The notes below the pieces were generated by a model that was not told where the DNA came from, did not search any database, and was given only the letters and a program-made list of their open reading frames with translations. Shown here one piece after another: positions 50 to 41,837 of a DNA stretch of 42,128 nt. The stretch's first letter is position 1; the number at the start of each line of letters is the position of its first letter. Both the position numbers and the translations under genes were made by a program. Source of the stretch: a virus; the UHGV virus genome UHGV-0155081. One strand, written 5' to 3'.

Positions 50-2794
50 TCAAATCGCGTTCAGGTCTTTCTTATTTAACCATGCTTTCAGAGCGGCAAC
101 ACTGCGTGTAATTTCTTCGTGTGGAAGGGGGGCAGATAATGGCTGCTGCTCCAGTTGTGCGCAAAGCTGGCTGGCGCTACGCATTCCCAGACTCGTGCAA
201 CTGCTTTTTAGCTGATGTGCGGCACGCTTTATTTTTTCGCTGTTCTGGCTGGCGCGGGCAATGTCGATTTCATCGAGAAGCGGCAGGGCATGTTGTTTAA
301 ATAATATCAGCCATTCGTGGATCTTCTCCGTCCCCATCAACTGAGCATCTTCATTGAGTTGCGATACATCCAGCGGTTGATCGTTATTGACTTGCAGTTG
401 GAGATAGTGCGCCAGTAACTGACCGAGCACTTCACGCGGCACCGGTTTAGGGATAATCCCGCGAAATAATGAACTGGTACGCTGGCGCAACGTTTCGTCG
501 ATGACATGAGCGCTAAAGCCAATCAAAACCAGCGACGGATATTGCTGTGCCAGTTGCCGGGCAAGCGTAATGCCGTCGATATCGGGCAGATCAAAATCCA
601 CCAGTGCGGCAGCAAACGGTTCGCTATTTTGCAACGTCTCTATCGCGTGCGCGGCATTGCCAACAGCAACGACCTGCGCACCACTGTTGTTCAGCATCTC
701 AACGGTAATTCGCTGGGTTAGCGGGTTATCTTCAATTAACAGCAAACGTAAACCGTCCAGATGCACCGCCTGATTGACTGTTTTTGGCACGGGTGCAGTG
801 GCAACACGTAACGGCAAGCGTAAACAAAAACAGCTTCCAACCTCCGGCGTGCTGGTGGCGCTCAGTTCGCCGCTCATCGCCTGGGCCAGACGGCTACTGA
901 TAGTCAGCCCCAGCCCGGTGCCGCCGCGTTTGCCGCTAACCTGAACAAATGGCTGGAAGATTTCAGCCAGTTTCGCGGGATCAATACCGCAGCCGCTGTC
1001 TTCCACTTCGACCAGCCACAGCTCGCCATCAGTGCGACTACGCAGGATAATGTACCCTTCGTCGGTGAAACGCAGGGCGTTGCTCAACAGGTTGGTAATG
1101 ACCTGACGAATACGCCGCGGATCGCCCATTAACGCAGTCGGTACATCGTCGGCAATTTCAGTTGCCAGGCGAATCGGGCGACCTTTCACCCGTCCGCTCA
1201 TTAATTGCAGGGTACTTTCCAGCAACGGGCGCGGTTCAAAGGGTTCATCGCTGACCGAAACATTCTTGCCGCCTGCTTCGATAGCCGAATAATCGAGAAT
1301 ATCGTTGAGGATGGTCAGCAACGATTCACCAGAGTCGGTAATTGCCCGCAAATCATCGCGCTGGGCATTAAGTGCGGGGTTATCTGCCAGCAGTTGCGCG
1401 GTGCCAAGAATACCGTACAGCGGTGTGCGGATCTCATGGCTCATCGCCGCCAGAAACGCCGATTTTGCCTGGCTGGCTTTTTCTGCTTCCGCCCGTGCCT
1501 GTCGGTGTTCTATCACCAGCTCCTGCAATTCAGCTGTACGCGCTTTGACCTGTGCCGCCAGCTGTTCGCGGTGGCGATTCAGCGCATGAACACTGCTGCG
1601 AAACGCATCCATCAGCCGCCCGATGGTATCCAGCTCCCGCACGCCAGCGGTTTCCGGAAAAGGGGAGTCGATATCACCGTCCAGTAAGCGTTGCAGCGCC
1701 TGCGTTTGTTCGGCAAGTGGACGCGTGACTGAGCGATAAACCACGCGCCAGAGGATCAGAATCAATGCACAAAGTGAAACTATCCCCAGTAATAACAGGC
1801 TGTATTGCCCGCGTGAACTGGCTTTTTCCAGATGCGCCAGTCCGTGCTGATTACGTAGCTCAATGGTGTCGACCAGCTGACTGACTTCGCTACTAAACTG
1901 CGCGAACTGGGCGATGTTATTTTGGGCGAGAGTTTGCAGGCGATTGCTGATTTCACTGTCCTGCTGATACAGCGCCAGCAAATCGTTATATTGGCTAACG
2001 GTAGTTAACGTTGTTGCGACCTGAGCACGAACTCCCGGATCTTCAATGCGTATTTGCCGACGTTGCAGAATTTTCACCGCATTATTGAGCTGCTTTTCCA
2101 GCGTTGGCGCATTTTTCTGGATCTGTTCCAACCCCAGATTCATCACCATTTGCTGCACCCGCAGGGCGCTAAGGCGCAGTTCATTCATCTGGTTAACATA
2201 CTCAAGATCGATATCAATCAGCCGATCGAGTGCACTTTCTGCGGCCTGACGCTGATGTTGTTCGATCAAATCGTAAATCCCGGCCTGGGTCGCTCCGGCG
2301 GAGGTTGCCGCATTATTCGCCTGACCTTGCGCCAGGCGTGCGATTTCATCAGCGGCGGCGACTATCTGCTGACTGAGTTGCTGTTGTTGCTGGCGCAGTT
2401 GCAAACGCTGCCCCACCAGCTCCCCTTGTTGACGTAACGAACGGGAAATCTCCTGCTCCTGTTGTTCAATAGCGGTGGTATCAAAACCTTGTTCCCGTAA
2501 CGCTTGCAGCAACGCATTAATCTTCAGGCTTTGTGCGGTGAGCATTCGCCCCTGCGCCTGCCACATCTTTTCGTTATCGGCACTGGTCAGGTTCTGCGCG
2601 GCGAAAAGTTCCCAGGCGCTGGCTTCGCTCAACTGGCGCGCCATATTCATGGTAGGAATCAATGCCTGAGTGTTGTCTTTTTCCACCTGGCTGATAAAGC
2701 GCAGGTTGTACCATCCCACCAGGGTACTGGTCAGGGTTAACAGCGCCATCAGGGCAAAGCCCATCCAGAGTCTTCGGGTCAGGGTTAAATTCAC
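50..2794 (-). CDS. torS: TorS hybrid sensor histidine kinase (TMAO respiration two-component system), complete 914 aa
   Basis: Full-length ORF in six-frame track; HisKA motif ([10 protein letters not shown]), HATPase motifs (GTGLGLTIS), receiver and HPt-like C-terminus; matches E. coli TorS as I remember it. Confidence 0.93.
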
Positions 2795-2888: not shown

Positions 2889-3962
2889 TCATTTGTCGAT
2901 TTCAATTTTGTCCCATTCCCGTCCACGGCTGTCCCTATACCGCGCCGCCATTGAATCTGATTTATGCCCGAGAAGACGTTGAGCAAACTTATCGCCAATC
3001 TGGTTCCGGTATAGCCTCGCTGACAGGCTACGCAGTTCATGGAATGTTGGCGGGTTTCCATCAAATGAGAGTCCAGATGCATTTCTCGCCTTTGTAAAAT
3101 ACTTTGATACTGTTTTCGGGGAAAGCGGATCGTGATGCTTTGATGCGATTATAGTTTCACTGCTGCTGGCATCCCTGCATTTCTGTAGTGTATCAGCCAA
3201 TGAGATATTGAGCGCGTCAATCGTTAGCATTAGCGGAATGGCGAGTTTAGCCCCTGTTTTACTCTGTTCAATGTGAAGATGGTTGTCGTTTATGTCTGAC
3301 CATTTCATTCTGCACAAATCGCCGACTCTCTGCCCTGTAACGACGGCCAAATCCATCGCCAGCCTTAGCCAGATAGGGAGAGGTTCGGCTGCATGGTAAA
3401 TCTCGACATACTCATTAGCTGTCAGCCTTGAGCGCCTTACTTCTGACTTTGCTGTACGGGTTGCTGTTACCGGATTCGTTGCCACATGCCCCTCGGCTAT
3501 TGCTTCACGAAAAACGTCAACAAGGGTTGACCTGATTAATTTTGCGGAAGCTGCTTTACCTTCTGCTACGTAGGTGTTTAGCATTGCTGCCACTTCTTTC
3601 GTTGATATGTCAGTGAGCGGTTTGTCCGGCAATTTTCTTCGGATTGCCCTGATTTTGCTGGCGTAGTCGAGTAGAGTTTTCGGCCTGATCCCCCTTTCGG
3701 TGAGGATTCTTTCATATCGGTCAAGCCACACATGAAGAGTGATTGCGTCACCGCCTTTAATTCTGTCTATCAGTGATTTGCGTCCGCTGTCTGAGAGTAA
3801 CTCAATGTTGGCCTGTATAGCTTCAGTGATTGCTATCCTCCTGTCTCGGCCTAATCCAAACTCTTTACCCGTCCTTGGGTCCCTGTAGCAGTAATATCCA
3901 TTGTTTCTTATATAAAGGTTAGGAGGTAAATCCCGGCGCTCATGACTTCGCCTTCTTCCCAT
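2889..3962 (-). CDS. int: Tyrosine integrase, lambda Int family
   Basis: 357 aa; N-terminal arm-binding region and C-terminal catalytic region (HELRSLSARLY...LLGHKSDSMAARY) closely resemble lambda Int from memory. Confidence 0.93.
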   Translation of the reverse strand: MGRRRSHERRDLPPNLYIRNNGYYCYRDPRTGKEFGLGRDRRIAITEAIQANIELLSDSGRKSLIDRIKGGDAITLHVWLDRYERILTERGIRPKTLLDYASKIRAIRRKLPDKPLTDISTKEVAAMLNTYVAEGKAASAKLIRSTLVDVFREAIAEGHVATNPVTATRTAKSEVRRSRLTANEYVEIYHAAEPLPIWLRLAMDLAVVTGQRVGDLCRMKWSDINDNHLHIEQSKTGAKLAIPLMLTIDALNISLADTLQKCRDASSSETIIASKHHDPLSPKTVSKYFTKARNASGLSFDGNPPTFHELRSLSARLYRNQIGDKFAQRLLGHKSDSMAARYRDSRGREWDKIEIDK

Positions 3963-9034: not shown

Positions 9035-9283
9035 CTACTCTATTTCTTCTTCGAATGATTTTATTAGTCGGTCAATAACATCATCCGTTTCAATATCATT
9101 TCCGTCTGATTGCTTTAATACATCTATTGATTCTGCAGCGGTAAATTCCATCGCTGTGAGAAACTCGACAATTGCACACTCAACGACATATCGTTCTTCA
9201 TCTGTACGACATGAGATAAAAGAGCATTTAATTGCTGTTATTACTTTTTGTTTAAGCTCTGCAGGGTAATCAGTTTTTATCAT
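9035..9283 (-). CDS. Hypothetical acidic protein
   Basis: 82-aa ORF. Confidence 0.35.
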   Translation of the reverse strand: MIKTDYPAELKQKVITAIKCSFISCRTDEERYVVECAIVEFLTAMEFTAAESIDVLKQSDGNDIETDDVIDRLIKSFEEEIE

Positions 9284-9460: not shown

Positions 9461-9712
9461 TCAGGCAGCCTTGTTGTAAATGTTGCAGGTATCAAGTAAG
9501 TAATTAGATGGAGCGCCATAAATTATGAATTCATCGTTTGTCGGGTCCATCTCCATCTCTTGGCCTATTGCCATTCTTGCGTCAGTGTCATCAGCTGCGA
9601 AGCATAAAACAGCCCACGCACCCATTGTTTTAAAAAGAACTGCAATTGGCTGTGGTTTTACTGAATTTGCGTTAGCGCGAAAATCATAAATCGCACTTTC
9701 ATGAAATTCCAT
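9461..9712 (-). CDS. Hypothetical protein
   Basis: 83-aa ORF immediately downstream of N. Confidence 0.35.
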   Translation of the reverse strand: MEFHESAIYDFRANANSVKPQPIAVLFKTMGAWAVLCFAADDTDARMAIGQEMEMDPTNDEFIIYGAPSNYLLDTCNIYNKAA

Positions 9713-9720
9713 ATATCACC

Positions 9721-10026
9721 TCAATCGTAATAAGCTGGAATTGATTTTCCGCGTTGCTTCTGGCGGCCTGAGCAGGTCACACCCATTTCACTGCGTGGCT
9801 TGCGGTAGTAAATACGGTTCTGTTTACGCTCGACTTCTTCTGCCTTCTTGCAGCGAAGGCTTCCGAGTGATGCTGCTTTATCTGCTCTGACGCAACCAGA
9901 GAGCTTTAGCGCAATTTTTCGCGCCAGCCGCTGTTCTTGCATTGCCTGCTCACGTTGAGCCTGTCTGCGTGCTCTGCGGCGATTTCTGGCGTTATCGTCA
10001 GCCAGATATGTTATGACGACTGTCAT
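9721..10026 (-). CDS. N: Antitermination protein N
   Basis: 101 aa; N-terminal arginine-rich motif (DNARNRRRARRQAQ) and C-terminal YYRKP...GVTCSGRQKQRGKSIP resemble lambda N; nutL immediately upstream. Confidence 0.75.
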   Translation of the reverse strand: MTVVITYLADDNARNRRRARRQAQREQAMQEQRLARKIALKLSGCVRADKAASLGSLRCKKAEEVERKQNRIYYRKPRSEMGVTCSGRQKQRGKSIPAYYD

Positions 10027-10133
10027 GTTGACCTCCGATGATTGACTTTGGCGGTGACGCGCCGGGTGCTTATCTTCCGGTTGCCGTCGTGCAGCTGCAC
10101 TTCACGTCACCCCAAAGCCAACTACTCTTTGGT

Positions 10134-10176
10134 TCCCGCATTTCGGCGGGACAATCCCATCAATGTTAAAGAGCCT
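10134..10176 (-). promoter_or_regulatory. nutL: boxA (GCTCTTTAACA, 10165..10175) and boxB hairpin (TCCCGCCGAAATGCGGGA, 10134..10151)
   Basis: boxA matches rrn/lambdoid boxA consensus; boxB is identical in sequence to the nutR boxB on the other strand. Confidence 0.7.
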
Positions 10177-10222
10177 GCCAATCTGTTCCGTTTGGCTTCC
10201 AGCGTCCTGCTGCTGGCTAAAG

Positions 10223-10307
10223 AATACTGTAGGTATTTTATTGTGTAAATACCCAAGGTATTTATTTTTGATGAAATAATGATAAACAAATGAATACAAA
10301 GGATATT
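10223..10307. promoter_or_regulatory. OL operator cluster / pL region
   Basis: Three 15-bp palindromes of form AATAC-N5-GTATT at 10223..10237, 10248..10262, 10293..10307 (third imperfect), same motif as in OR. Confidence 0.5.
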
Positions 10308-10393
10308 TATTTTTTCGGTGTCTGCTTGCTCAGTGCTTTTTATGCGGGATATGTGAAGTGGATCCCGATAGCTATTGCTGCCGGGATTATAGG

Positions 10394-10783
10394 TTAGTCA
10401 GCGAAGGTTAAGACGAGAATTACCTTAATGATGTCTGCTACAACAGACACGGCCATAGATAAACCAAAGACGATCCAAGCCATAGAGATGTCTTCACTAC
10501 CATCGTATAGAGTTCCGTAATCACTGGTGTAAGGCGCAAATGTCGCGCCTTGATACAATAGGTATAAGCTTGATCCATAGAGGATAAATGCAGACATCCC
10601 TTGTATTGCTATGATCACTAGAATCATGAAACGAGCTGATCTATGCGCCCAAGCCTGGCTTATTTTTTCTGATAGAGATTTCGCAATAAAAGCATGCGCT
10701 AAGCCGTAAATTGTCGAGATTGCCAACATCCCAAAAAAGCTTGCTATAGCGGTTCCAACCATAATCGCCCCTTGCGTGATCAA
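10394..10783 (-). CDS. Small polytopic membrane protein co-transcribed downstream of cI (rexB-position gene)
   Basis: 129 aa with about four hydrophobic helices; 4-nt overlap with cI stop. Confidence 0.5.
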   Translation of the reverse strand: MITQGAIMVGTAIASFFGMLAISTIYGLAHAFIAKSLSEKISQAWAHRSARFMILVIIAIQGMSAFILYGSSLYLLYQGATFAPYTSDYGTLYDGSEDISMAWIVFGLSMAVSVVADIIKVILVLTFAD

Positions 10784-11496
10784 ACCAGCCTTAGTTTTGT
10801 CTCAATTGCAACGCCTATAATCTTGCAGTTTCCATTGATTGGTACGAGAGGCCATGCAGGATTAAGTCCCTTGAGGTATTTATTTCCGCCGTCGATTATC
10901 AGCTTCTTGAATGTTGCTTCGTTAGAGTCAGAAAGTTTTGCTATGACCAAACTGCCGTTGACCGCCTCCCTTCCGGTATCGAAAAGAACGAATGTTCCCT
11001 CTGGAATGCTTAACCCAACCGGTGCCGTCATTGAATCACCTTCCACTTTAAGCCAGAACGCATTACCTTGAATATGCGCATCAGACTCAAGCCAAACATC
11101 TATGTCTTTAATGGTGTATGGTTCGCATGCTTCACACCACGAGCCAGCCTGGATACTGCTTAACACCGGATACCTCTTTCCTGCTCTGTATTCCCCTGCA
11201 TACCTTACGTTGGCATCGCTCTTAAGGCTTTCTGCCTGTTCTGCAACCTTGGCAGCAATTGACTGGCTAAAATCAGCAATTGAGACTTGCAACAATCGTG
11301 CAAAACCAGATGCAACCTCAACGTTTAGCGCGTTTCTGCCATTAAGATAATGCCCTACCGCTCCTTGGGTGATACCCAGTTCATCAGCGATTGAGTATTG
11401 GGTTATTCCCAATTCTTTCTTTTTTGACTCATACAAAGCCTTAAGCCGCTTAGCGTCTTCGAGCTGTTCTGTCGTCAGTGATTTTTTATTTTCCAT
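10780..11496 (-). CDS. cI: CI-type prophage repressor (HTH + LexA/S24 peptidase-like C-terminal domain)
   Basis: 238 aa; HTH (ITQYSIADELGITQGAVGHYLNG), C-terminal GDSM...K autocleavage motifs; divergent from cro. Confidence 0.9.
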   Translation of the reverse strand: MENKKSLTTEQLEDAKRLKALYESKKKELGITQYSIADELGITQGAVGHYLNGRNALNVEVASGFARLLQVSIADFSQSIAAKVAEQAESLKSDANVRYAGEYRAGKRYPVLSSIQAGSWCEACEPYTIKDIDVWLESDAHIQGNAFWLKVEGDSMTAPVGLSIPEGTFVLFDTGREAVNGSLVIAKLSDSNEATFKKLIIDGGNKYLKGLNPAWPLVPINGNCKIIGVAIETKLRLV

Positions 11497-11531
11497 GGCT
11501 TAATTCTAATAGCTAAGGTACTTAAACTAAA

Positions 11532-11571
11532 AATACCCTGAGTATTGATTGCTTTGAATACCTGTAGTATT
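11532..11571. promoter_or_regulatory. OR operator sites / pR-pRM region
   Basis: Palindromes AATAC-CCTGA-GTATT (11532..11546) and AATAC-CTGTA-GTATT (11557..11571) between cI and cro. Confidence 0.5.
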
Positions 11572-11596
11572 CTTTATTCATGGTTAATAACGGAGA

Positions 11597-11797
11597 GTGC
11601 ATATGATTCGAATGACACTTGCCGATTACGCCAAAATCCATGGACAGGCTAAAGCAGCCAGTGACTTTGGTGTAATCCAGTGCGCTATCAGCAAGGCCAT
11701 TCTGGCAGGCCGTAACATCATGGTTACGGTAAAGCCTGATGGCAGTGTGATTGGAGAGGAAGTTCGTCCTTTCCCAAGCAACAAGAAAAACAAATAG
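11597..11797 (+). CDS. cro: Cro repressor
   Basis: 66 aa; resembles lambda Cro ([13 protein letters not shown]...[11 protein letters not shown]...PFPSNKK). Confidence 0.85.
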
Positions 11798-11803
11798 TAA
11801 CAC

Positions 11804-11847
11804 CGCTCTTTAACAGTCATGGTCATCATTCCCGCCGAAATGCGGGA
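11804..11847 (+). promoter_or_regulatory. nutR: boxA (CGCTCTTTAACA, 11804..11815) and boxB hairpin (11830..11847)
   Basis: Consensus boxA 14 nt upstream of boxB hairpin TCCCGC-CGAAAT-GCGGGA; between cro and cII. Confidence 0.75.
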
Positions 11848-11905
11848 ATACAACGCGCATACGTTGATGCGCATAACTTCTTATTTGTTAAGGAAATACT
11901 TACAT

Positions 11906-12184
11906 ATGGAACTTACAAGTACTCGCAAGAAAGCGAATGCAATTACAAGCAACATCCTGAATCGAATTGCTGTACGTGGTCAGCGAAAGGTTGCTGACGC
12001 GTTAGGAATTAATGAATCGCAAATTTCGCGATGGAAAGACAGCTTCATCCCAAAAATGGGAATGCTTCTGGCTGTTCTTGAATGGGGTGTTGAAGACGAG
12101 GAGTTGGCGGAACTGGCTAAGAAAGTAGCCAGAATGCTGACAAAAGAAAAAGCCCCGAAGAACGGCGAATTCTTCGAGGCCTGA
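11906..12184 (+). CDS. cII: CII transcriptional activator
   Basis: Track ORF starts at 11819 but reads through nutR; start at 11906 (MELTSTRKK...) has RBS AAGGAAA; HTH region resembles lambda CII (SQISRWK...MLLAVLEWGV). Confidence 0.8.
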   Translation: MELTSTRKKANAITSNILNRIAVRGQRKVADALGINESQISRWKDSFIPKMGMLLAVLEWGVEDEELAELAKKVARMLTKEKAPKNGEFFEA

Positions 12185-12218
12185 TGTAGAAAGACTGGAT
12201 CAATCCACAGGAGTCATT

Positions 12219-12380
12219 ATGACAAAACGTCGTAAGAAATACCAGGAAAAAGAAGAGATTCGACACCCTGATTCACCTGAGGGATTAGTGGTAGCCGCAG
12301 CAAATAACAGGGCGTTCGCAGAGCGCCTTGTTGGTGTTTACAGACTAGCCAAAGCAGGAGTGAAACATGGGCGTCGTTAA
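12219..12380 (+). CDS. Small basic ORF between cII and replication genes (53 aa)
   Basis: ATG with RBS AGGAG; below track length cut-off; stop overlaps O-like start. Confidence 0.3.
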   Translation: MTKRRKKYQEKEEIRHPDSPEGLVVAAANNRAFAERLVGVYRLAKAGVKHGRR

Positions 12381-13197
12381 GTTAGCTGATTACAGGCCTC
12401 AACTGGAGGTCGTGGAGCATCGCGTGGCAGAACTCGAAGATGGCTACACTCGGACTGCAAACACACTGTTAGAAGCCGCCATGCTTTCTGGACTTACTCT
12501 ACATCAGTTACTGATTGTTATGGCTGTATGGCGCAAGACATACGGTTACAACAAAAAAATAGATTGGATCGGAAACGAACAGTTCGCTGAACTCACTGGC
12601 ATGGCACCAACCAAATGCTCTACCGCCAAAAACGAGCTTATCAGAATGGGAGTTCTCATTCAGGTGGGGCGTCAAGTTGGTATGAATACAAACATTTCCG
12701 AGTGGAAAACGAAAGTTAACGGATTCGGTAAAACATTTACCAATTCGGTAAAACAAACCTTCACCAAATCGGTAAAAAGCAATTTACCGAATCAGTCAAA
12801 CACAAAAGACAATATACAAAAGACAATAAATACAAATACCCCCTTACCCCCTAACGGGGGCGGCGATGGGCAGGTTAAACCTGAACGTCGCAAGACAGAA
12901 CGAATCGACTACGAATCCTTCCTGAACGCCTACAACACCGAAGTTGGTGACAGACTGCCGCACGCTGTTGCGGTCAACGAGAAACGCAAACGCCGCCTGA
13001 AGAAAATCATCCCGCAACTGAAAACACCAAACGTGGACGGTTTCAGAGCGTATGTCAGGGCGTTTGTGCATCAGGCCAAGCCGTTTTACTTCGGAGACAA
13101 CGACACGGGCTGGACGGCAGATTTTGATTACCTGCTGAGGGAAGATTCGTTAACGGGAGTACGGGAAGGAAAGTTTGCAGACAGGGGGATTGCATGA
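12367..13197 (+). CDS. Replication initiator (lambda O / P22 gp18 family)
   Basis: 276 aa; position after cII; iteron repeats inside the gene as in lambda O. Confidence 0.75.
12724..12792 (+). repeat. Origin iterons inside initiator gene
   Basis: TTCGGTAAAACA at 12724..12735 and 12744..12755, ATCGGTAAAAAG at 12768..12779, inverted partial copy 12784..12792; AT-rich tract follows. Confidence 0.6.
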
Positions 13198-35150: not shown

Positions 35151-35196
35151 ACGTGCATATTTAAATATTGCACGTTATAACGTGCATGTGTATGAT
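35151..35196 (+). promoter_or_regulatory. Sigma70-like promoter overlapped by ACGTGCA operator repeats
   Basis: -35 TTGCAC (35168..35173), 17-bp spacer, -10 TATGAT (35191..35196); inverted repeat ACGTGCA (35151..35157) / TGCACGT (35169..35175) and third copy at 35180..35186. Confidence 0.5.
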
Positions 35197-35221
35197 TGAC
35201 TTATCAATCACAACACGAGAT

Positions 35222-36235
35222 ATGCTCATGAAAAATGATGATGTTAGTGGGAAGGCCAAAGGCGGTAAGGCACGCGCGGCAAAAATGACAGCAGAGCAAA
35301 GAAAAGAATCCTCAAGAAAGGCTGTTGCCGCAAAAAAAGAAAAAGCTTTATTGCCCGTATCTGCGAATGAGGGAAAGTTAAAGATCGGTGATGCGGAATT
35401 AGATGTCGCGGTTCTCGAAAATGGACGGCGTATCATATCACAAGCTTCTGTTTTTAAAGCATTTGGCCGACCACAAAGAGGGGGTAGAGCACCTCAAGAA
35501 GAGGGGGTGATCAATATGCCCGCTTTTATGGATGCTGCAAACCTTAAAAAATATATAAATCAAGATGTTATGGATGTGATCAATAAGGTCAAATACAAGA
35601 CGATTACTGGCTCCGTCCAGGAAGGTTATGACGCATCCATAATACCTCTTGTTTGCGATGTTTATTTAAAGGCAAGAGAGGCAGGCGCTATCACCAGGCC
35701 AAACCAGTTAGAGACAGCCAAGAAAGCTGAAATTCTGGTGCGCTCATTAGCTAAAGTCGGAATAATAGCGCTTGTTGATGAAGCGACGGGGTACCAGCGA
35801 GATAGAGAAAAAGATGCGCTCGCCAAAATACTCGAGGCCTTTGTCGCAAAGGAAATTCAACCTTATATTACAACATTTCCGGCTGATTATTATGAAGAGC
35901 TTTTCAGGTTAAGGGGCTTAGAATACCCGCCGGAAAATCCCCGCTTCCGGCCTCAGTATTTTGGCGTTTTGACAAATGATATCGTCTACAAGAGATTGGC
36001 ACCAAACATCCTTGAGGAGCTTAAAAAGCAGAACGTAAAGGCCTCAAAAGGTACAAAGTTGTTTCAGGGGCTGACGCCAAATATTGGATATCAAAAATTA
36101 AGAGAGCATCTGTCATCAACCGTTACGATTATGAAGCTATCTAACGACTATTCAGATTTTATTGCAAAAATGAATCGCCTGCATCCAAGGTTTGAGGATG
36201 TGAAAACAGACGAACTGGATGATTCAGACAAGTAA
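35222..36235 (+). CDS. Uncharacterised protein with lysine-rich N-terminus (sieA-position gene)
   Basis: Track ORF 35168..36235; 35222 (MLMKNDD...) is the first ATG downstream of the predicted promoter; about 337 aa. Confidence 0.5.
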   Translation: MLMKNDDVSGKAKGGKARAAKMTAEQRKESSRKAVAAKKEKALLPVSANEGKLKIGDAELDVAVLENGRRIISQASVFKAFGRPQRGGRAPQEEGVINMPAFMDAANLKKYINQDVMDVINKVKYKTITGSVQEGYDASIIPLVCDVYLKAREAGAITRPNQLETAKKAEILVRSLAKVGIIALVDEATGYQRDREKDALAKILEAFVAKEIQPYITTFPADYYEELFRLRGLEYPPENPRFRPQYFGVLTNDIVYKRLAPNILEELKKQNVKASKGTKLFQGLTPNIGYQKLREHLSSTVTIMKLSNDYSDFIAKMNRLHPRFEDVKTDELDDSDK

Positions 36236-36964: not shown

Positions 36965-37026
36965 AGCCCCAACTGCTGTAACAGTCAGGGCTTCGTTTGT
37001 CAGTAAATCCGTGGAGAAAAACCAAC

Positions 37027-37929
37027 ATGAATAGTATAGCAATTTTAGAAGCAGTGAACACCTCTTACGTACCATTCAACGGTCAGCAAATTATCACCGC
37101 CATGGCTGCCGGAGTTGCATATGTTGCGATGAAGCCAATCGTTGAAAACCTTGGAATGAGCTGGTCAACGCAGCAAACAAAACTCATGAAGCAGATTAGC
37201 AAATTCAACTGTGTTCATATGAACATGGTTGCCGCTGATGGTAAGCTTCGTAAGCTACTCTGCCTTCCTTTGAAGAAGTTAAATGGATGGCTGTTCAGCA
37301 TCAACCCTGAGAAAGTTCGTGCTGACATCCGCGATAAACTGATTCAGTACCAGGAAGAATGCTTTACTGTGCTGCATGACTACTGGACGAAGGGAAAGGC
37401 AGAAAATGCACGTAAGAAAACATCTGTTGATGACAGGACTCCGCTTCGTGATGCTGTAAATATGCTAGTCAGCAAAAAACATCTAATGTACCCAGAAGCT
37501 TATGCAATGATTCATCAGCGTTTCAATGTGGACAGTATTGAAGAGCTTGATGAATCTCAGATACCGCAAGCAGTAGAGTACATCCACAGGGTAGTGCTTG
37601 AAGGCGAGTTCATTGGAAAACAAGAGAAGAAAACCAACGAGCTTTCTGCAAAAGAAGCAAACAGCCTTGTATGGCTATGGGATTATGCCAACCGCTCACA
37701 GGCATTATTCCGCGAATTGTATCCGGCATTAAAACAAATTCAATCGAACTATTCCGGCAGATGCTACGACTACGGTCATGAGTTCTCGTATGTTATCGGA
37801 ATGGCGAGAGACGTTTTAATCAATCACACACGAAATGTTGATATCAATGAGCCAGACGGACCAACGAATCTTTCCGCATGGATGAGACTTAAGAATAAAG
37901 AATTACCTCCTTCAGTACATAGCTACTGA
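37027..37929 (+). CDS. ant: Antirepressor Ant
   Basis: Start at [26 protein letters not shown]..., matching P22 Ant N-terminus; track ORF begins 30 nt upstream. Confidence 0.9.
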
Positions 37930-38029: not shown

Positions 38030-40675
38030 ATGACAGACATTACAGCCAATGTTGTAGTGAGCATGCCTTCGCAACTCTTCACTATGGCCCGCTCTTTTAA
38101 AGCCGTAGCCAATGGCAAAATTTATATCGGTAAAATTGACACTGACCCGGTAAATCCTGAAAACCAGATTCAGGTTTATGTAGAGAACGAAGATGGTTCT
38201 CACGTTCCTGTTGCACAGCCAATCGTCATCAATGCCGCAGGGTATCCAGTATATAACGGACAGATTGCCAAATTCGTTACCGTGCAAGGCCATTCTATGG
38301 CTGTTTATGATGCGTATGGTGCACAGCAGTTCTATTTTCCTAATGTGCTGAAGTATGACCCGGATCAGTTTAAACAAAAAGTATTATCAAATGATATGCT
38401 AAATATGTCTCCTCTTTATTTTGGAGCTAAGGGGGATGGGATTAGCGATGATACTGAAGCATTTGTCGCGTTGGAAATGGATATAAAAAATAGGGTTATT
38501 GATTTAAGTGGAAGAGCATTTTTTGTTACTAAAAGTTTTATTGGAAATAGCTATATAAATGGTTCTTTTATTCGTGATGGCAGTAAACGAATTGCGATTG
38601 GTGATCTTAAATTAAGAGATAAAAGAGAGCCATTGATATTTTCCGGAATGCCAAAAGTATATAACACCAGACACACGTTGCGCAGAACTGAAGGTGCGGG
38701 TGGTTTATATGCGGTCATTCAGGGGTGTTGTTATGATGAAATTAACGACAAGATTTTTACTTTATCATCTACCACAGCATACGGTTATTGCATTAATGCC
38801 TTTGACGTGACGAATTCTGGTGAACTAGGAAGATACGACAGAACCCGTTCTACTGAACTTGGGCATCAGGGGCTTGGATTGCATCATAATCCTGATGGTA
38901 CTGTCGTGCTGTGGACATCGAAGCCTTATGGAACCGATGCCGCCAATCAATGTATTTCGATGGAAAATATATTGAGTTACACAGGGACAACCAACGGAGT
39001 ATCTGAAGGTTTTATCACCTGGAAGTTGTTCCCCTATGATGGAATGAGCGCAAGCTCTACTCCAACTGTATCAAGTTGTGAAAACTATCTACTTGCCAAG
39101 AAAATTTCATCGGATGGAATTACCTGCACGGTTCGTGTTTTCGACATAGTCAGCATGTGGAATAACAGAGCTCATAAAACTGATTATAGTGATGATTATT
39201 TAGTTGAGTTTAGCTATCAAAAACCATCACAAGAAGCATTTACCCAATCAATTGCTTGCGATGGGGCATACATTTACATACTTGAGTCACATACGTATGT
39301 TGGCATGACTAATTATATTTACGTATTTGACTTAACAGGCAGGTTTATTGAGCGAGTAGATATTTCAACTGTTGGTGATGATGAAGCAAAATCTGACAGT
39401 ACAGGAACTCCTGTTTATAAAGAGCCTGAGTCCCTAACAGTAATTAGAACGGAGAGTGGGTATGTTTTAACGCTGGGGATATGCACATATAAAGGAGTTG
39501 CTGAGAACGGGAAAAATGTATATCTGTTTGATATAGGCAGGTCTGGTTCGGTAGTGCAAAGCAAAGCAAGCCGTTCTGTATCCAGTAATACTGGTCTTCA
39601 TAGTTCTGGCTCCCCGGAGTTCAAATATGGAGTAAGGGAGTACAATGATACTTTTCACTGGACAGTTTGGCCAACAAGAAAGGGTATTCAAACTAACCGG
39701 GATAACCCTATATTGTTTCTTGATGGCGGAATTACTGGTGGAATGCAGTTAGCTTCAAACGGCACGGAAGGGATGAGCAACTCATGGGTTTCCCGGCATC
39801 AGTCAGACACCGCAGAAGGACCAAGAGCAATAATGTATAAGTCTCGCTCTGGTGTTGTATCAACTGATAATTTTGGAGCTCTGCAGACAGGGGATGTATT
39901 GGGTACTCATGTATGGGCCGGTGATACAGGTAGTAAGGCTGTGCAATGCGCACACATTAAATGCGTCACAAGAGGTAATCCTTCCGGAGACAATATCCCG
40001 GTTGCTTTCTACTTTGGAACCATGGGAGAGAGTGACGGCTTGCGTGACAGATGGGTATTAACAGAATTAGGTCATTTTCGACCATCAGGTTCAAATCTTT
40101 ATGATATTGGTACACAGTCGAATACTGTCAGAAACCTGTATATAAATAATAGCCCCATTGTAACCAGCGACAGAAATTATAAGCAGGATGAAGCTTCATT
40201 ATCTGATGCAGAACTACGGGTTGGAATGGCTATTTACCCGCTGATAAAAAAATTCAGAATGAAGGATGCTGTAAAAGAAAAAGGCTTGTCAGCGCGTGAG
40301 CATATCGGTGTAATTGCGCAAGATATACAATCCATCTTTGAATCTGAGGGGCTTGATGCATTTTCTTATGGGGTTCTTTGCTATGAAGAGTGGGATGATG
40401 AGTATGAGAAAGTCTATGCAACAAGAAATGTGACCAGAAAAATTTTAATTGATGAAGAGTCTGGTCAGTATGATGAAATCACAGAGGAAGAAGAGTATGA
40501 AACTGGTGAAGTAAGGTTAATTATGGAATCAGGAAGAAAATTATCAGTGCGCTATGACGAGTTAATGTTTCTGGCAATGAGCGCACTATATCATCACCAT
40601 GAGCAGGATATTGCCAATATCACATCAAAGATTAATAATCTGGAAAAATTATTAAAGTTAACACTAAATGGTTGA
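38030..40675 (+). CDS. Tailspike: P22-type head-binding domain, beta-helix-like centre, C-terminal chaperone-like domain
   Basis: 881 aa; first ~110 aa match P22 gp9 head-binding domain; [15 protein letters not shown] beta-helix cap motif; C-terminal GVIAQD region resembles S74 intramolecular chaperone domains. Confidence 0.85.
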
Positions 40676-40721: not shown

Positions 40722-41817
40722 TTAAATTTCAGCTATAAAACCTTCATAATTATTTTGTAAAAAAGGTTTGATGAACTTACGCTGAGGGGTATAAATCATA
40801 TCCTGATTTACTAAATCTGAGCGGATATTGAAAGTGGTTGAGAGCATGTTAAAGAACATCCTTTTCTTTTGCTCGTTGCCACCTGCTTTACCACATACCT
40901 TTTCCATCATTTCAAGGCATATCACCAGCCACGCATTGTAAAGCTTGGCCTTTTCTTCGTTAGTTTTTCCGCAAAAGTAAATCGTGTTAATAACCGAGTT
41001 AAGAATGAAGTGTCTATCTTCAAGAGGAAATTTTTGCCTTGATAAATGACCATTACCATGGAATGTTAAATGATAATAATCTTTGTCAGCAAGAATAGAT
41101 ATATTGTTTGCTACAGATAGAGATTGAACCATAAATATTTTATCTTCAGCTACGGTGATAGCTGGGTTGAAGAGAATGTTATGCTCTTTAAGCATATTTC
41201 TTCGGAAGAATTTGAAAATAGTTAACGACCGCAAGAGGTGATGCTTGGTTATATCTGCCTTATCTACAATTTTCACCTTGTATGGACGGATAGGCACCTC
41301 GCGATTACCATCTGATGCAATTTTGAAGTAAACAATATCACTATTATTTTTATCAGCAATATGAACCCCTCTCTCAAGAAGAGTTTCGTCAATATAGTCA
41401 TCGGAATCCATGAAGAAAATATAACGCCCTTTTGCTGCTTTTATCCCCTCATTTCGCGGGGTTGAAGCGTTACCTGAACCAATTTCTCGGCGAATAATTC
41501 TGTAGTTAATATCCGGTGCTATATTATATTCTATAGCAGCAATGCTTTTGTCACTTGAACAATCATCGACAAAAATAACCTCAAAGCGATCCTTATTAAT
41601 TGTTTGGTTATTAAGTGAGTTAATGCATTTAAGAATAAGTTTTTCACGATTATGAACAGGGATAACAACTGACACATCTAATGGGCAAAAATGGTTAATC
41701 TCATTAACTACAGTCGTTATTTTAGTAAAAGCCGCCAACAAAGCTGTTGTTAAATCAGTAGAAGATAAAAGGCTTTCTTTTTTAGTATTAGCTTTTATGT
41801 TAAAATAGAACCAATTA

Positions 41818-41837
<20 letters not shown>
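40722..41837 (-). CDS. Family-2 glycosyltransferase body (likely surface-polysaccharide modification), frame-separated from its leader
   Basis: 371-aa ORF; GT-A motifs (VVIPVHNRE...FVDDCSSD...FFMDSDDY); begins only at a GTG 9 nt after the repeat tract; about 30% GC. Confidence 0.8.

Follow-up and report, generated by a model that had tools for sequence, protein, structure and literature searches.

hkaS, the gene behind cI in the immunity operon of an HK620-type prophage, encodes a predicted three-helix inner-membrane protein and is a tentative candidate for superinfection exclusion

A small gene located directly behind the cI repressor gene of virus genome UHGV-0155081 is almost certainly hkaS, the second of the two genes in the cI immunity operon of HK620-type lambdoid prophages, which is provided with its own Shine-Dalgarno (SD) sequence and ATG start codon and encodes a protein of 122 amino acids. 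By analogy with other occupants of this slot and with SieA of P22, a tentative assignment can be made, according to which HkaS, expressed from the prophage, would by itself bring about superinfection exclusion at the inner membrane. In the following, the term window denotes the whole stretch of DNA that was analysed, at its full length of 42,128 nucleotides.

Organization of the Immunity Region

The window represents a complete P22-like prophage integrated next to torS, a sensor-kinase gene of the host (50-2794, minus strand). Its modules include an integrase, the Erf recombinase, O/DnaB replication genes, ejection proteins, and an antirepressor region. The features relevant to the present analysis are as follows.

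2889-3962, minus strand: integrase of the P22-like prophage
9721..10026, left of hkaS: N-type antiterminator (PHROG 271)
10214..10285, minus strand: OL1-OL3 and PL, left end of the slot (coordinates carried over from the HK620 annotation, offset +2381)
10362..10387, minus strand: stable RNA stem-loop, 7 nt past the stop codon of hkaS, candidate for the 3' end or the terminator of the immunity transcript
10394..10762, minus strand: hkaS coding sequence, ATG start, 122 amino acids plus stop, predicted inner-membrane protein with three transmembrane (TM) helices, N-out/C-in
10763..10779, minus strand: cI-hkaS spacer of 17 nt, containing the SD sequence AAGGGG at 10768-10773
10781-10783, minus strand: upstream TTG of the longest frame, overlapping the cI stop, upstream of the spacer
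10780..11496, minus strand: cI repressor, HTH_3 and Peptidase_S24 (Pfam), first gene of the immunity operon
11507..11580, plus strand: OR3-OR1, PR, and PRM region between cI and cro (coordinates carried over from the HK620 annotation)
38030-40675: tailspike, carrying an endosialidase-chaperone (Peptidase_S74) domain
40722-41837, minus strand: family-2 glycosyltransferase at the far end of the window

The surroundings of hkaS are those of a classic lambdoid immunity region. The repressor, a protein of 238 amino acids (Pfam E-values of 8e-10 for HTH_3 and 1e-23 for Peptidase_S24), is 99.2% identical to cI of HK620. To the right of cI, cro (PF09048) is found, followed by cII (PF05269); to the left of hkaS, a promoter scan revealed a PL-like promoter (TTTACA-17-TATTCT, 10249->10221), and the OL operators are kept in all lineages compared. 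According to the gene order of the window, hkaS is the sole gene in the slot between cI and OL/PL, as had been stated in a preliminary description of this DNA. The position directly downstream of an S24-type cI and upstream of OL/PL was recovered in the window, in HK620, in Salmonella, Hafnia, and Buttiauxella, and in 146 E. coli genomes. The GC content is 42.3% in hkaS, 45.2% in cI, and 46% in the prophage, from which a recent foreign origin is not clearly indicated. An Rfam scan of positions 9600-12400 gave no match.

Several other elements of the window were recorded alongside. A ral-like anti-restriction gene is located at 9035-9283, and an immI-like region comprises the antirepressor (36997-37929) and a P63C-domain protein (35168-36235). 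The glycosyltransferase gene at the far end is likely a surface-polysaccharide conversion gene. An ORF of 68 amino acids on the plus strand (10042-10248), antisense to the nutL/PL leader, is listed by PGAP as a hypothetical protein in one E. coli genome (L016 504-749) and is probably spurious.

Start Codon and cI-hkaS Junction

In the preliminary description, the gene had been taken as a frame of 129 amino acids at 10394..10783 (minus strand), overlapping the cI stop codon by 4 nt. This frame is indeed present in the ORF list; it begins at TTG, the last two bases of which form, together with the next A, the TGA stop of cI. The TTG is, however, only the most upstream possible start of the frame. 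Eight codons into it, an ATG is found at 10762, with the sequence AAGGGG located 5 nt ahead, and translation from there yields 122 amino acids, which is the version annotated in HK620 and by PGAP. Likewise, PHROG 6534, which is 122 positions long, aligns to residues 8-129 of the longer frame. The junction was readable in 79 IMG/VR alleles. Of these, 63 have a spacer of 17 nt between the cI stop and the ATG, 11 one of 18 nt, and five one of 19 nt, and because of the spacers of 18 or 19 nt the TTG is out of frame in 16 of them. The spacer of the Hafnia homologue also has 18 nt, and in the Salmonella homologue an in-frame TAA directly precedes the ATG. SD sequence and ATG, on the other hand, are kept in Salmonella, Hafnia, Buttiauxella, and locus L007, and the spacer amounts to 17-20 nt across all lineages examined. 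The variable spacer length, the Salmonella TAA, and the agreement of PHROG, HK620, and PGAP therefore lead to a protein of 122 amino acids, whose gene follows cI after a spacer of 17 nt and possesses its own ribosome-binding site. Thus, the frame as such stands, its length has to be corrected, and the 4-nt overlap is abandoned, the TTG not being conserved as a start.

The variation in spacer length is located in the G-run of the SD sequence, which reads AAGGGG, AAGGGGG, or AAGGGGGG (IMG/VR loci L023-L102); this polymorphism could tune the translation of hkaS. In three rare alleles (P0006, P0007, and P0009), the N-terminal third is frameshifted before the reading frame is regained, and the gene is called from the TTG. 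These may be pseudogenes or sequencing errors.

Transcription of hkaS

Between cI and hkaS, the promoter and terminator scan found no promoter-like or terminator-like site, and the 17-nt spacer leaves no room for either. The case for cotranscription made in the preliminary description holds equally well without the 4-nt overlap and is upheld by the anatomy of the locus, that is, the short spacer free of such signals and a stem-loop located before OL3. Judged by this arrangement, hkaS is very likely transcribed together with cI, from PRM in the lysogen and from PRE during the establishment of lysogeny, and the common transcript would probably end at the stem-loop just before OL3.

This stem-loop (10362-10387) has a folding energy of -13.7 kcal/mol and a z-score of -4.2. 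Stem-loops are found at the same position in four lineages, namely, those of the window, Hafnia, Salmonella, and L007 (the loci with a stem-loop directly after hkaS besides the window being L013, L002, and L007), and the stem sequences in Salmonella and L007 are unrelated. That unrelated stems occur at the same place argues for selection on the structure. None of the four is followed by a U-tract, which makes termination at this site uncertain; instead of working as a strong intrinsic terminator, the structure may serve in 3'-end stabilisation or processing. The terminator tIMM of the HK620 annotation corresponds to 10282-10312 of the window, slightly downstream of the stem-loop and overlapping OL3, so that the two positions do not coincide. 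Wherever the terminator lies, no further gene stands between hkaS and the operators.

Identity and Distribution of the HkaS Family

The match of the window protein to PHROG 6534 is full-length (E=5.3e-78, profile positions 1-122 of 122). At the amino acid level, it is 95.8% identical to HkaS of HK620 (AAK28867), 95.8-98% identical to the HkaS proteins of HK620, HK630, HK140, mEpX2, and Stx2c phages, and 96-98% identical to the protein clusters P0001-P0003. The DNA segment 10300-11900 shares 98.3-99.0% identity with 16 phage records, which include HK620, HK630, HK140, mEpX2, HF4s, phi296/phi367, 611R6, and two Stx2c phages; for the whole immunity region, the identity between the window and HK620 is 98.8%. 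In the HK620 record (AF335538), the gene is named hkaS, its product is given as "unknown", and it is located between cI and tIMM/OL3. The name and the annotation reportedly go back to the HK620 paper of Clark et al. from 2001 (as cited in PMC2629481). Hence, hkaS is a named gene that has been annotated since 2001 and not a new ORF; no functional study of, or experiment on, hkaS or PHROG 6534 was found in the searchable literature.

The HkaS family is tiny and confined to the Enterobacterales. Twelve clusters were obtained in a word-indexed search of 5.8e9 proteins. When 1.84e9 representatives were searched exhaustively with an HMMER profile, a single full-length cluster at 50% identity and one fragment of 44 amino acids were returned, from which it follows that no remote relatives of HkaS are reachable. 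Only one hkaS locus, that of Buttiauxella, was encountered among 185,579 species-representative genomes, the hosts of the gene being prophages of E. coli, Salmonella, Hafnia, and Buttiauxella. In E. coli, hkaS is present in 146 of the 5,426 complete genomes (about 2.7%), always on the chromosome and adjoined by a LexA-family cI in all 146 cases.

At every locus examined, cro diverges from cI, and cI is followed by hkaS, OL/PL, and N in this order. Since the neighbouring modules for replication, recombination, and N differ from locus to locus, hkaS evidently travels with the immunity cassette, the only constantly linked element being the C-terminal domain of cI. In Buttiauxella (L022 1833-2869), the DNA-binding N-terminal domain of cI and cro have been swapped for unrelated ones, and hkaS is kept behind a cI C-terminal domain of about 88% identity. 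In the Enterobacter phage BHUENT3 (L010 1441-2886), the same C-terminal domain is followed by two unrelated ORFs, encoding a Cys-rich protein of 127 amino acids and a protein of 109 amino acids with a C-terminal TM helix. The slot behind cI is therefore exchangeable. In both of these recombinants, it is also seen that the S24 domain of cI acts as a separate recombination module.

The strict linkage of hkaS to one cI S24 domain, maintained in Buttiauxella even with the DNA-binding domain and cro replaced, lends itself to a reading in which HkaS would modulate the lysis-lysogeny switch or prophage stability, either through a membrane-associated host factor (FtsH/HflKC) or through repressor cleavage. 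Lambda CIII and RexB are known to modulate host proteases, and the PRE transcript would, according to the gene order, include hkaS. The linkage may, however, merely reflect the 17-nt spacer, within which there is no room for recombination, and in BHUENT3 the identical cI C-terminal domain is paired with unrelated slot genes. Such a role is considered unlikely; the part of the protein that would have to carry it out is taken up again below.

Selection on hkaS

In the IMG/VR data set, hkaS is intact in 80 of 80 alleles. Segregating sites among 81 alleles comprise 21 nonsynonymous and 19 synonymous positions in hkaS, as compared with 5 and 33, respectively, in cI (Fisher p = 2.8e-4), and the mean pairwise dN/dS within E. 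coli is 0.18 for hkaS and 0.02 for cI. The amino acid replacements among the HkaS alleles are all conservative (I/V/L/M and A/S/T/G). Between the window and Hafnia, dS amounts to 0.69 for hkaS and 0.71 for cI, which implies that the two genes diverged together, with omega values of 0.14 and 0.03, respectively. Salmonella and L007 exhibit 86-88% identity in cI and only 51-60% in HkaS. From these sequence comparisons, hkaS is under purifying selection that is looser than that on the repressor. Positive selection was considered and rejected, omega being 0.14-0.18 and the changes being conservative; the value of 1.5 obtained for the pair of window and HK620 is based on just six substitutions. The window allele carries the replacements T76A (one of 81 alleles) and I56M (two of 81).

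These data also bear on the notion that hkaS is a non-functional passenger ORF or an annotation artefact, which would fit the missing function and domain assignment as well as the few frameshifted alleles. Against it stand the intactness of all 80 alleles despite 40 segregating sites, an omega of 0.14-0.18, and the conservation of ORF, SD sequence, and charge topology down to 50% identity across four genera, so that this notion is hardly credible.

Predicted Structure and Topology of HkaS

HkaS is predicted to be an inner-membrane protein with three TM helices and N-out/C-in orientation, for which hydropathy, structural modeling, and charge bias are in agreement; the polytopic membrane protein postulated in the preliminary description is thereby borne out at the level of topology prediction. 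The Kyte-Doolittle plot contains three long hydrophobic segments. The AlphaFold2 model, calculated from an alignment of eight sequences (pLDDT 89.9, pTM 0.76), comprises the three long helices 2-29, 41-73, and 89-121; in addition, residues 31-38 form a short helix, and the second loop contains a small hairpin. In all homologues, the charges of loop 1 are +4 to +6 and at most -1, and those of loop 2 sum to a net negative value (-1 to -4). According to the positive-inside rule, basic loops face the cytoplasm, and this places the N-terminus outside and the C-terminus inside. The class I holins share the layout of three TM helices with N-out/C-in orientation; an assignment of HkaS to this class was rejected because the protein is devoid of a charged C-terminal tail and a holin would be lethal if encoded in a lysogenic operon.

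Invariant residues are found in loop 1 and at the start of TM2 (K33, I34, W38, H40, A43, R44, F45), within TM2 (Q54), at the periplasmic end of TM2 (S65, YLLY, T74, F75, Y78), and in the cytoplasmic half of TM3 together with the C-terminus (S106, D110, K113, ILVLT, A121). Thus, the basic cytoplasmic loop is marked by the conserved motif KISQAWAHRxARF, the acidic periplasmic loop is conserved in part (YLLYQGATFxPY), and the end of TM3 (DIxKxILVLTFAD) is nearly invariant. TM1 and the periplasmic hairpin are the most variable parts. The best-conserved surface, made up of loop 1 and the C-terminal end of TM3, is predicted to face the cytoplasm; in total, the protein has only about 17 loop residues plus a short tail on this side.

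Proposed Function

Scans of HkaS against Pfam and NCBIfam produced only sub-threshold noise (Cation_ATPase_C, E=0.011; TssN, E=0.021), no family of PADLOC-DB v2 was matched at E<=10, the PDB sequences, searched by profile, gave no match, and fold searches retrieved only generic helical bundles. In the tblastn analysis of the whole window, RexA, RexB, SieB of lambda and P22, SieA, gp17, Sf6 gp38 (Hex), and HK620 hkaP were not detected, so that the prophage is without recognisable exclusion genes of P22 and lambda.

In the scenario tentatively favored here, HkaS would be synthesized from the repressor transcript and inserted into the inner membrane as a three-helix bundle, with the N-terminus in the periplasm and the C-terminus in the cytoplasm. 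There, its more probable mode of action would be an interference with genome entry by incoming phages, in the manner of P22 SieA or T4 Imm, the latter being known to interfere with this step. With the same reserve, HkaS might be the founder of a so far uncharacterised single-gene family of inner-membrane exclusion proteins, restricted to lambdoid prophages of Enterobacterales and unrelated to RexB, SieA, SieB, Imm, and Hex, whose conserved cytoplasmic face would mediate the effect. Exclusion at the membrane is ranked first because the slot occupants rexAB, hex, and bstA interfere with phages, because SieA, the only well-studied case among the stand-alone inner-membrane proteins with three TM helices from prophages of P22-like phages, blocks DNA delivery, and because HkaS possesses no sensing domain. 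Several findings count against it. For a protein that blocks injection, the periplasmic hairpin would be the part expected in use, and it is the most variable one. Omega values below 1, conservative substitutions, and the missing sign of positive selection do not speak for a role in an arms race, and the failure to find a match in PADLOC, Pfam, or NCBIfam, or an informative fold match, is a further point on this side. The main caveat arises from the cytoplasmic location of the conserved face, by which abortive infection and a modulator of the Hex or CIII type are kept alive as rivals.

As an abortive-infection effector, HkaS would be a latent membrane-permeabilising or depolarising protein similar to RexB, triggered by infection either directly or via a host or unlinked phage factor, and it would kill or arrest the lysogen. 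The slot is shared with rexB, and a polar stripe on TM3 (S102, S106, D110, K113), together with the invariant Q54 of TM2, could line an oligomeric pore. HkaS has, however, no homology to RexB or SieB, its predicted TM helices number three and not four, and a sensor partner is neither present in the window nor conserved in the relatives. A sensor-triggered mechanism of the Rex type is less likely since there is neither a partner gene nor a cytoplasmic domain big enough to sense infection, and the effector role as a whole has to be rated as rather improbable.

The best-conserved surface being cytoplasmic is also what the switch modulator introduced above would lead one to expect, and Hex, another occupant of the same slot, has such an activity (PMC3564112). 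Here, the limited cytoplasmic exposure of the protein and the lack of homology to Hex are the counterarguments.

Finally, HkaS could be a lysogenic-conversion or host-fitness factor unrelated to phages, acting, for instance, on transport, colonisation, or the tolerance of envelope stress. Many prophage morons that lysogens express have effects of this kind, and the 146 E. coli genomes with an intact hkaS come from many different hosts. The protein has, on the other hand, no similarity to any transporter or stress protein, and the characterised slot occupants reviewed (rexAB, hex, bstA) are all directed against phages through exclusion or abortive infection; only a low probability is therefore assigned to this option. 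Exclusion at the inner membrane thus remains the reading that is preferred, with the reservations given.

Significance

The cI-N region of lambdoid phages is a recognised hotspot for prophage genes that protect the host (rexAB, hex, bstA). HkaS is an orphan occupant of this slot, compact with its 122 amino acids, strictly conserved in position, and subject to purifying selection, and its frequency among the complete E. coli genomes is high enough to matter ecologically. If it is a stand-alone membrane excluder, a new protein family would be added to prophage-encoded defence, and a very small, tractable model would become available of how a three-helix membrane protein stops phage infection. 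Should its role lie in the tuning of prophage induction, HkaS would constitute a second case of Hex-type logic realized by an unrelated protein. An accessory membrane protein in a repressor operon is, as such, a familiar kind of element; this familiarity, together with an annotation of the gene that dates from 2001, would make the gain incremental either way.

Comparison with Known Systems

The HK620 gene hkaS is the same gene at the same place between cI and OL, in the same 122-amino acid ATG form. In lambda, the corresponding slot holds rexA-rexB, as had been pointed out in the preliminary description and as the compared gene orders confirm. RexB resembles HkaS in its location downstream of cI, with transcription from PRM that is very likely for hkaS as well, and in being a small polytopic inner-membrane protein (predicted in the case of HkaS). 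It differs in size and layout, with 144 amino acids as compared with 122 and usually four TM helices described as compared with three predicted ones, and in its need for RexA, a partner that is absent from the window. That no rexA accompanies hkaS had also been recognized early; the slot contains no second gene, and tblastn with lambda RexA (PF15969) against the whole window gave a best E-value of 1.6. The comparison with RexB and SieB family profiles, which the preliminary description had proposed as a check, gave no relationship to either family: for RexB (PF15968), there was no Pfam match at E<=1 and the hhalign probability was 0.6%, and for SieB (PF14163), there was no Pfam match and the hhalign probability was 1.6%. 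As a control, the Pfam models of RexB and SieB detected lambda RexB at 8.5e-92 and the lambda SieB prototype at 1e-29, respectively. SieB of lambda and P22 has in common with HkaS that it is a prophage-expressed membrane protein, there involved in exclusion, but its gene is part of the PL operon region and lies on the opposite strand, whereas hkaS is located behind cI.

The Hex protein of phage 434 and its homologue gp38 of Sf6 are encoded by a single accessory gene in the slot of hkaS. Hex is carried on the PRM mRNA, excludes the heterologous phage P22, stabilises the lysogen, lowers spontaneous induction in 434, and is toxic in its full-length form when overexpressed (PMC3564112). The sequences of Hex and gp38 are unrelated to HkaS; with Sf6 gp38, tblastn found nothing at the hkaS locus, the best E-value in the window (0.056) lying elsewhere. 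In addition, Hex and gp38 are not polytopic, having only an N-terminal signal-like hydrophobic segment, and the hex gene truly overlaps the repressor gene, which hkaS does not. The product of Sf6 gene 38 (L011 2108-2512) starts with MIRIAALLSILLTTSANSEC, which resembles a cleavable signal peptide. Such a signal-like start sits oddly with the model of Hex acting on cytoplasmic repressor cleavage (PMC3564112).

BstA of the Salmonella prophage BTP1 is likewise the product of a single gene downstream of cI, and bstA has been described as a prophage defence gene sharing the transcription of the repressor, in a cI-N region regarded as a mosaic hotspot (PMC8585504). HkaS itself had no match among the models of PADLOC-DB. 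For the genes behind the epsilon34 repressor, too, expression from the prophage is expected, "like rexA and rexB" (PMC2629481).

In P22, the slot of hkaS is empty, and the exclusion protein SieA of this phage is encoded elsewhere, in the immI region beside the ejection genes and under its own promoter. With 162-164 amino acids, SieA is larger than HkaS, and the hhalign probability for a relationship, obtained with the P22 sequence, one of three SieA sequence types, is 0.3%. Both proteins are, however, stand-alone and prophage-encoded and have three predicted TM helices, the location of HkaS being predicted as well. SieA is located in the inner membrane and blocks DNA delivery (PMC10883804). 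Among the systems compared, it is the closest analogue for the possible action of HkaS.
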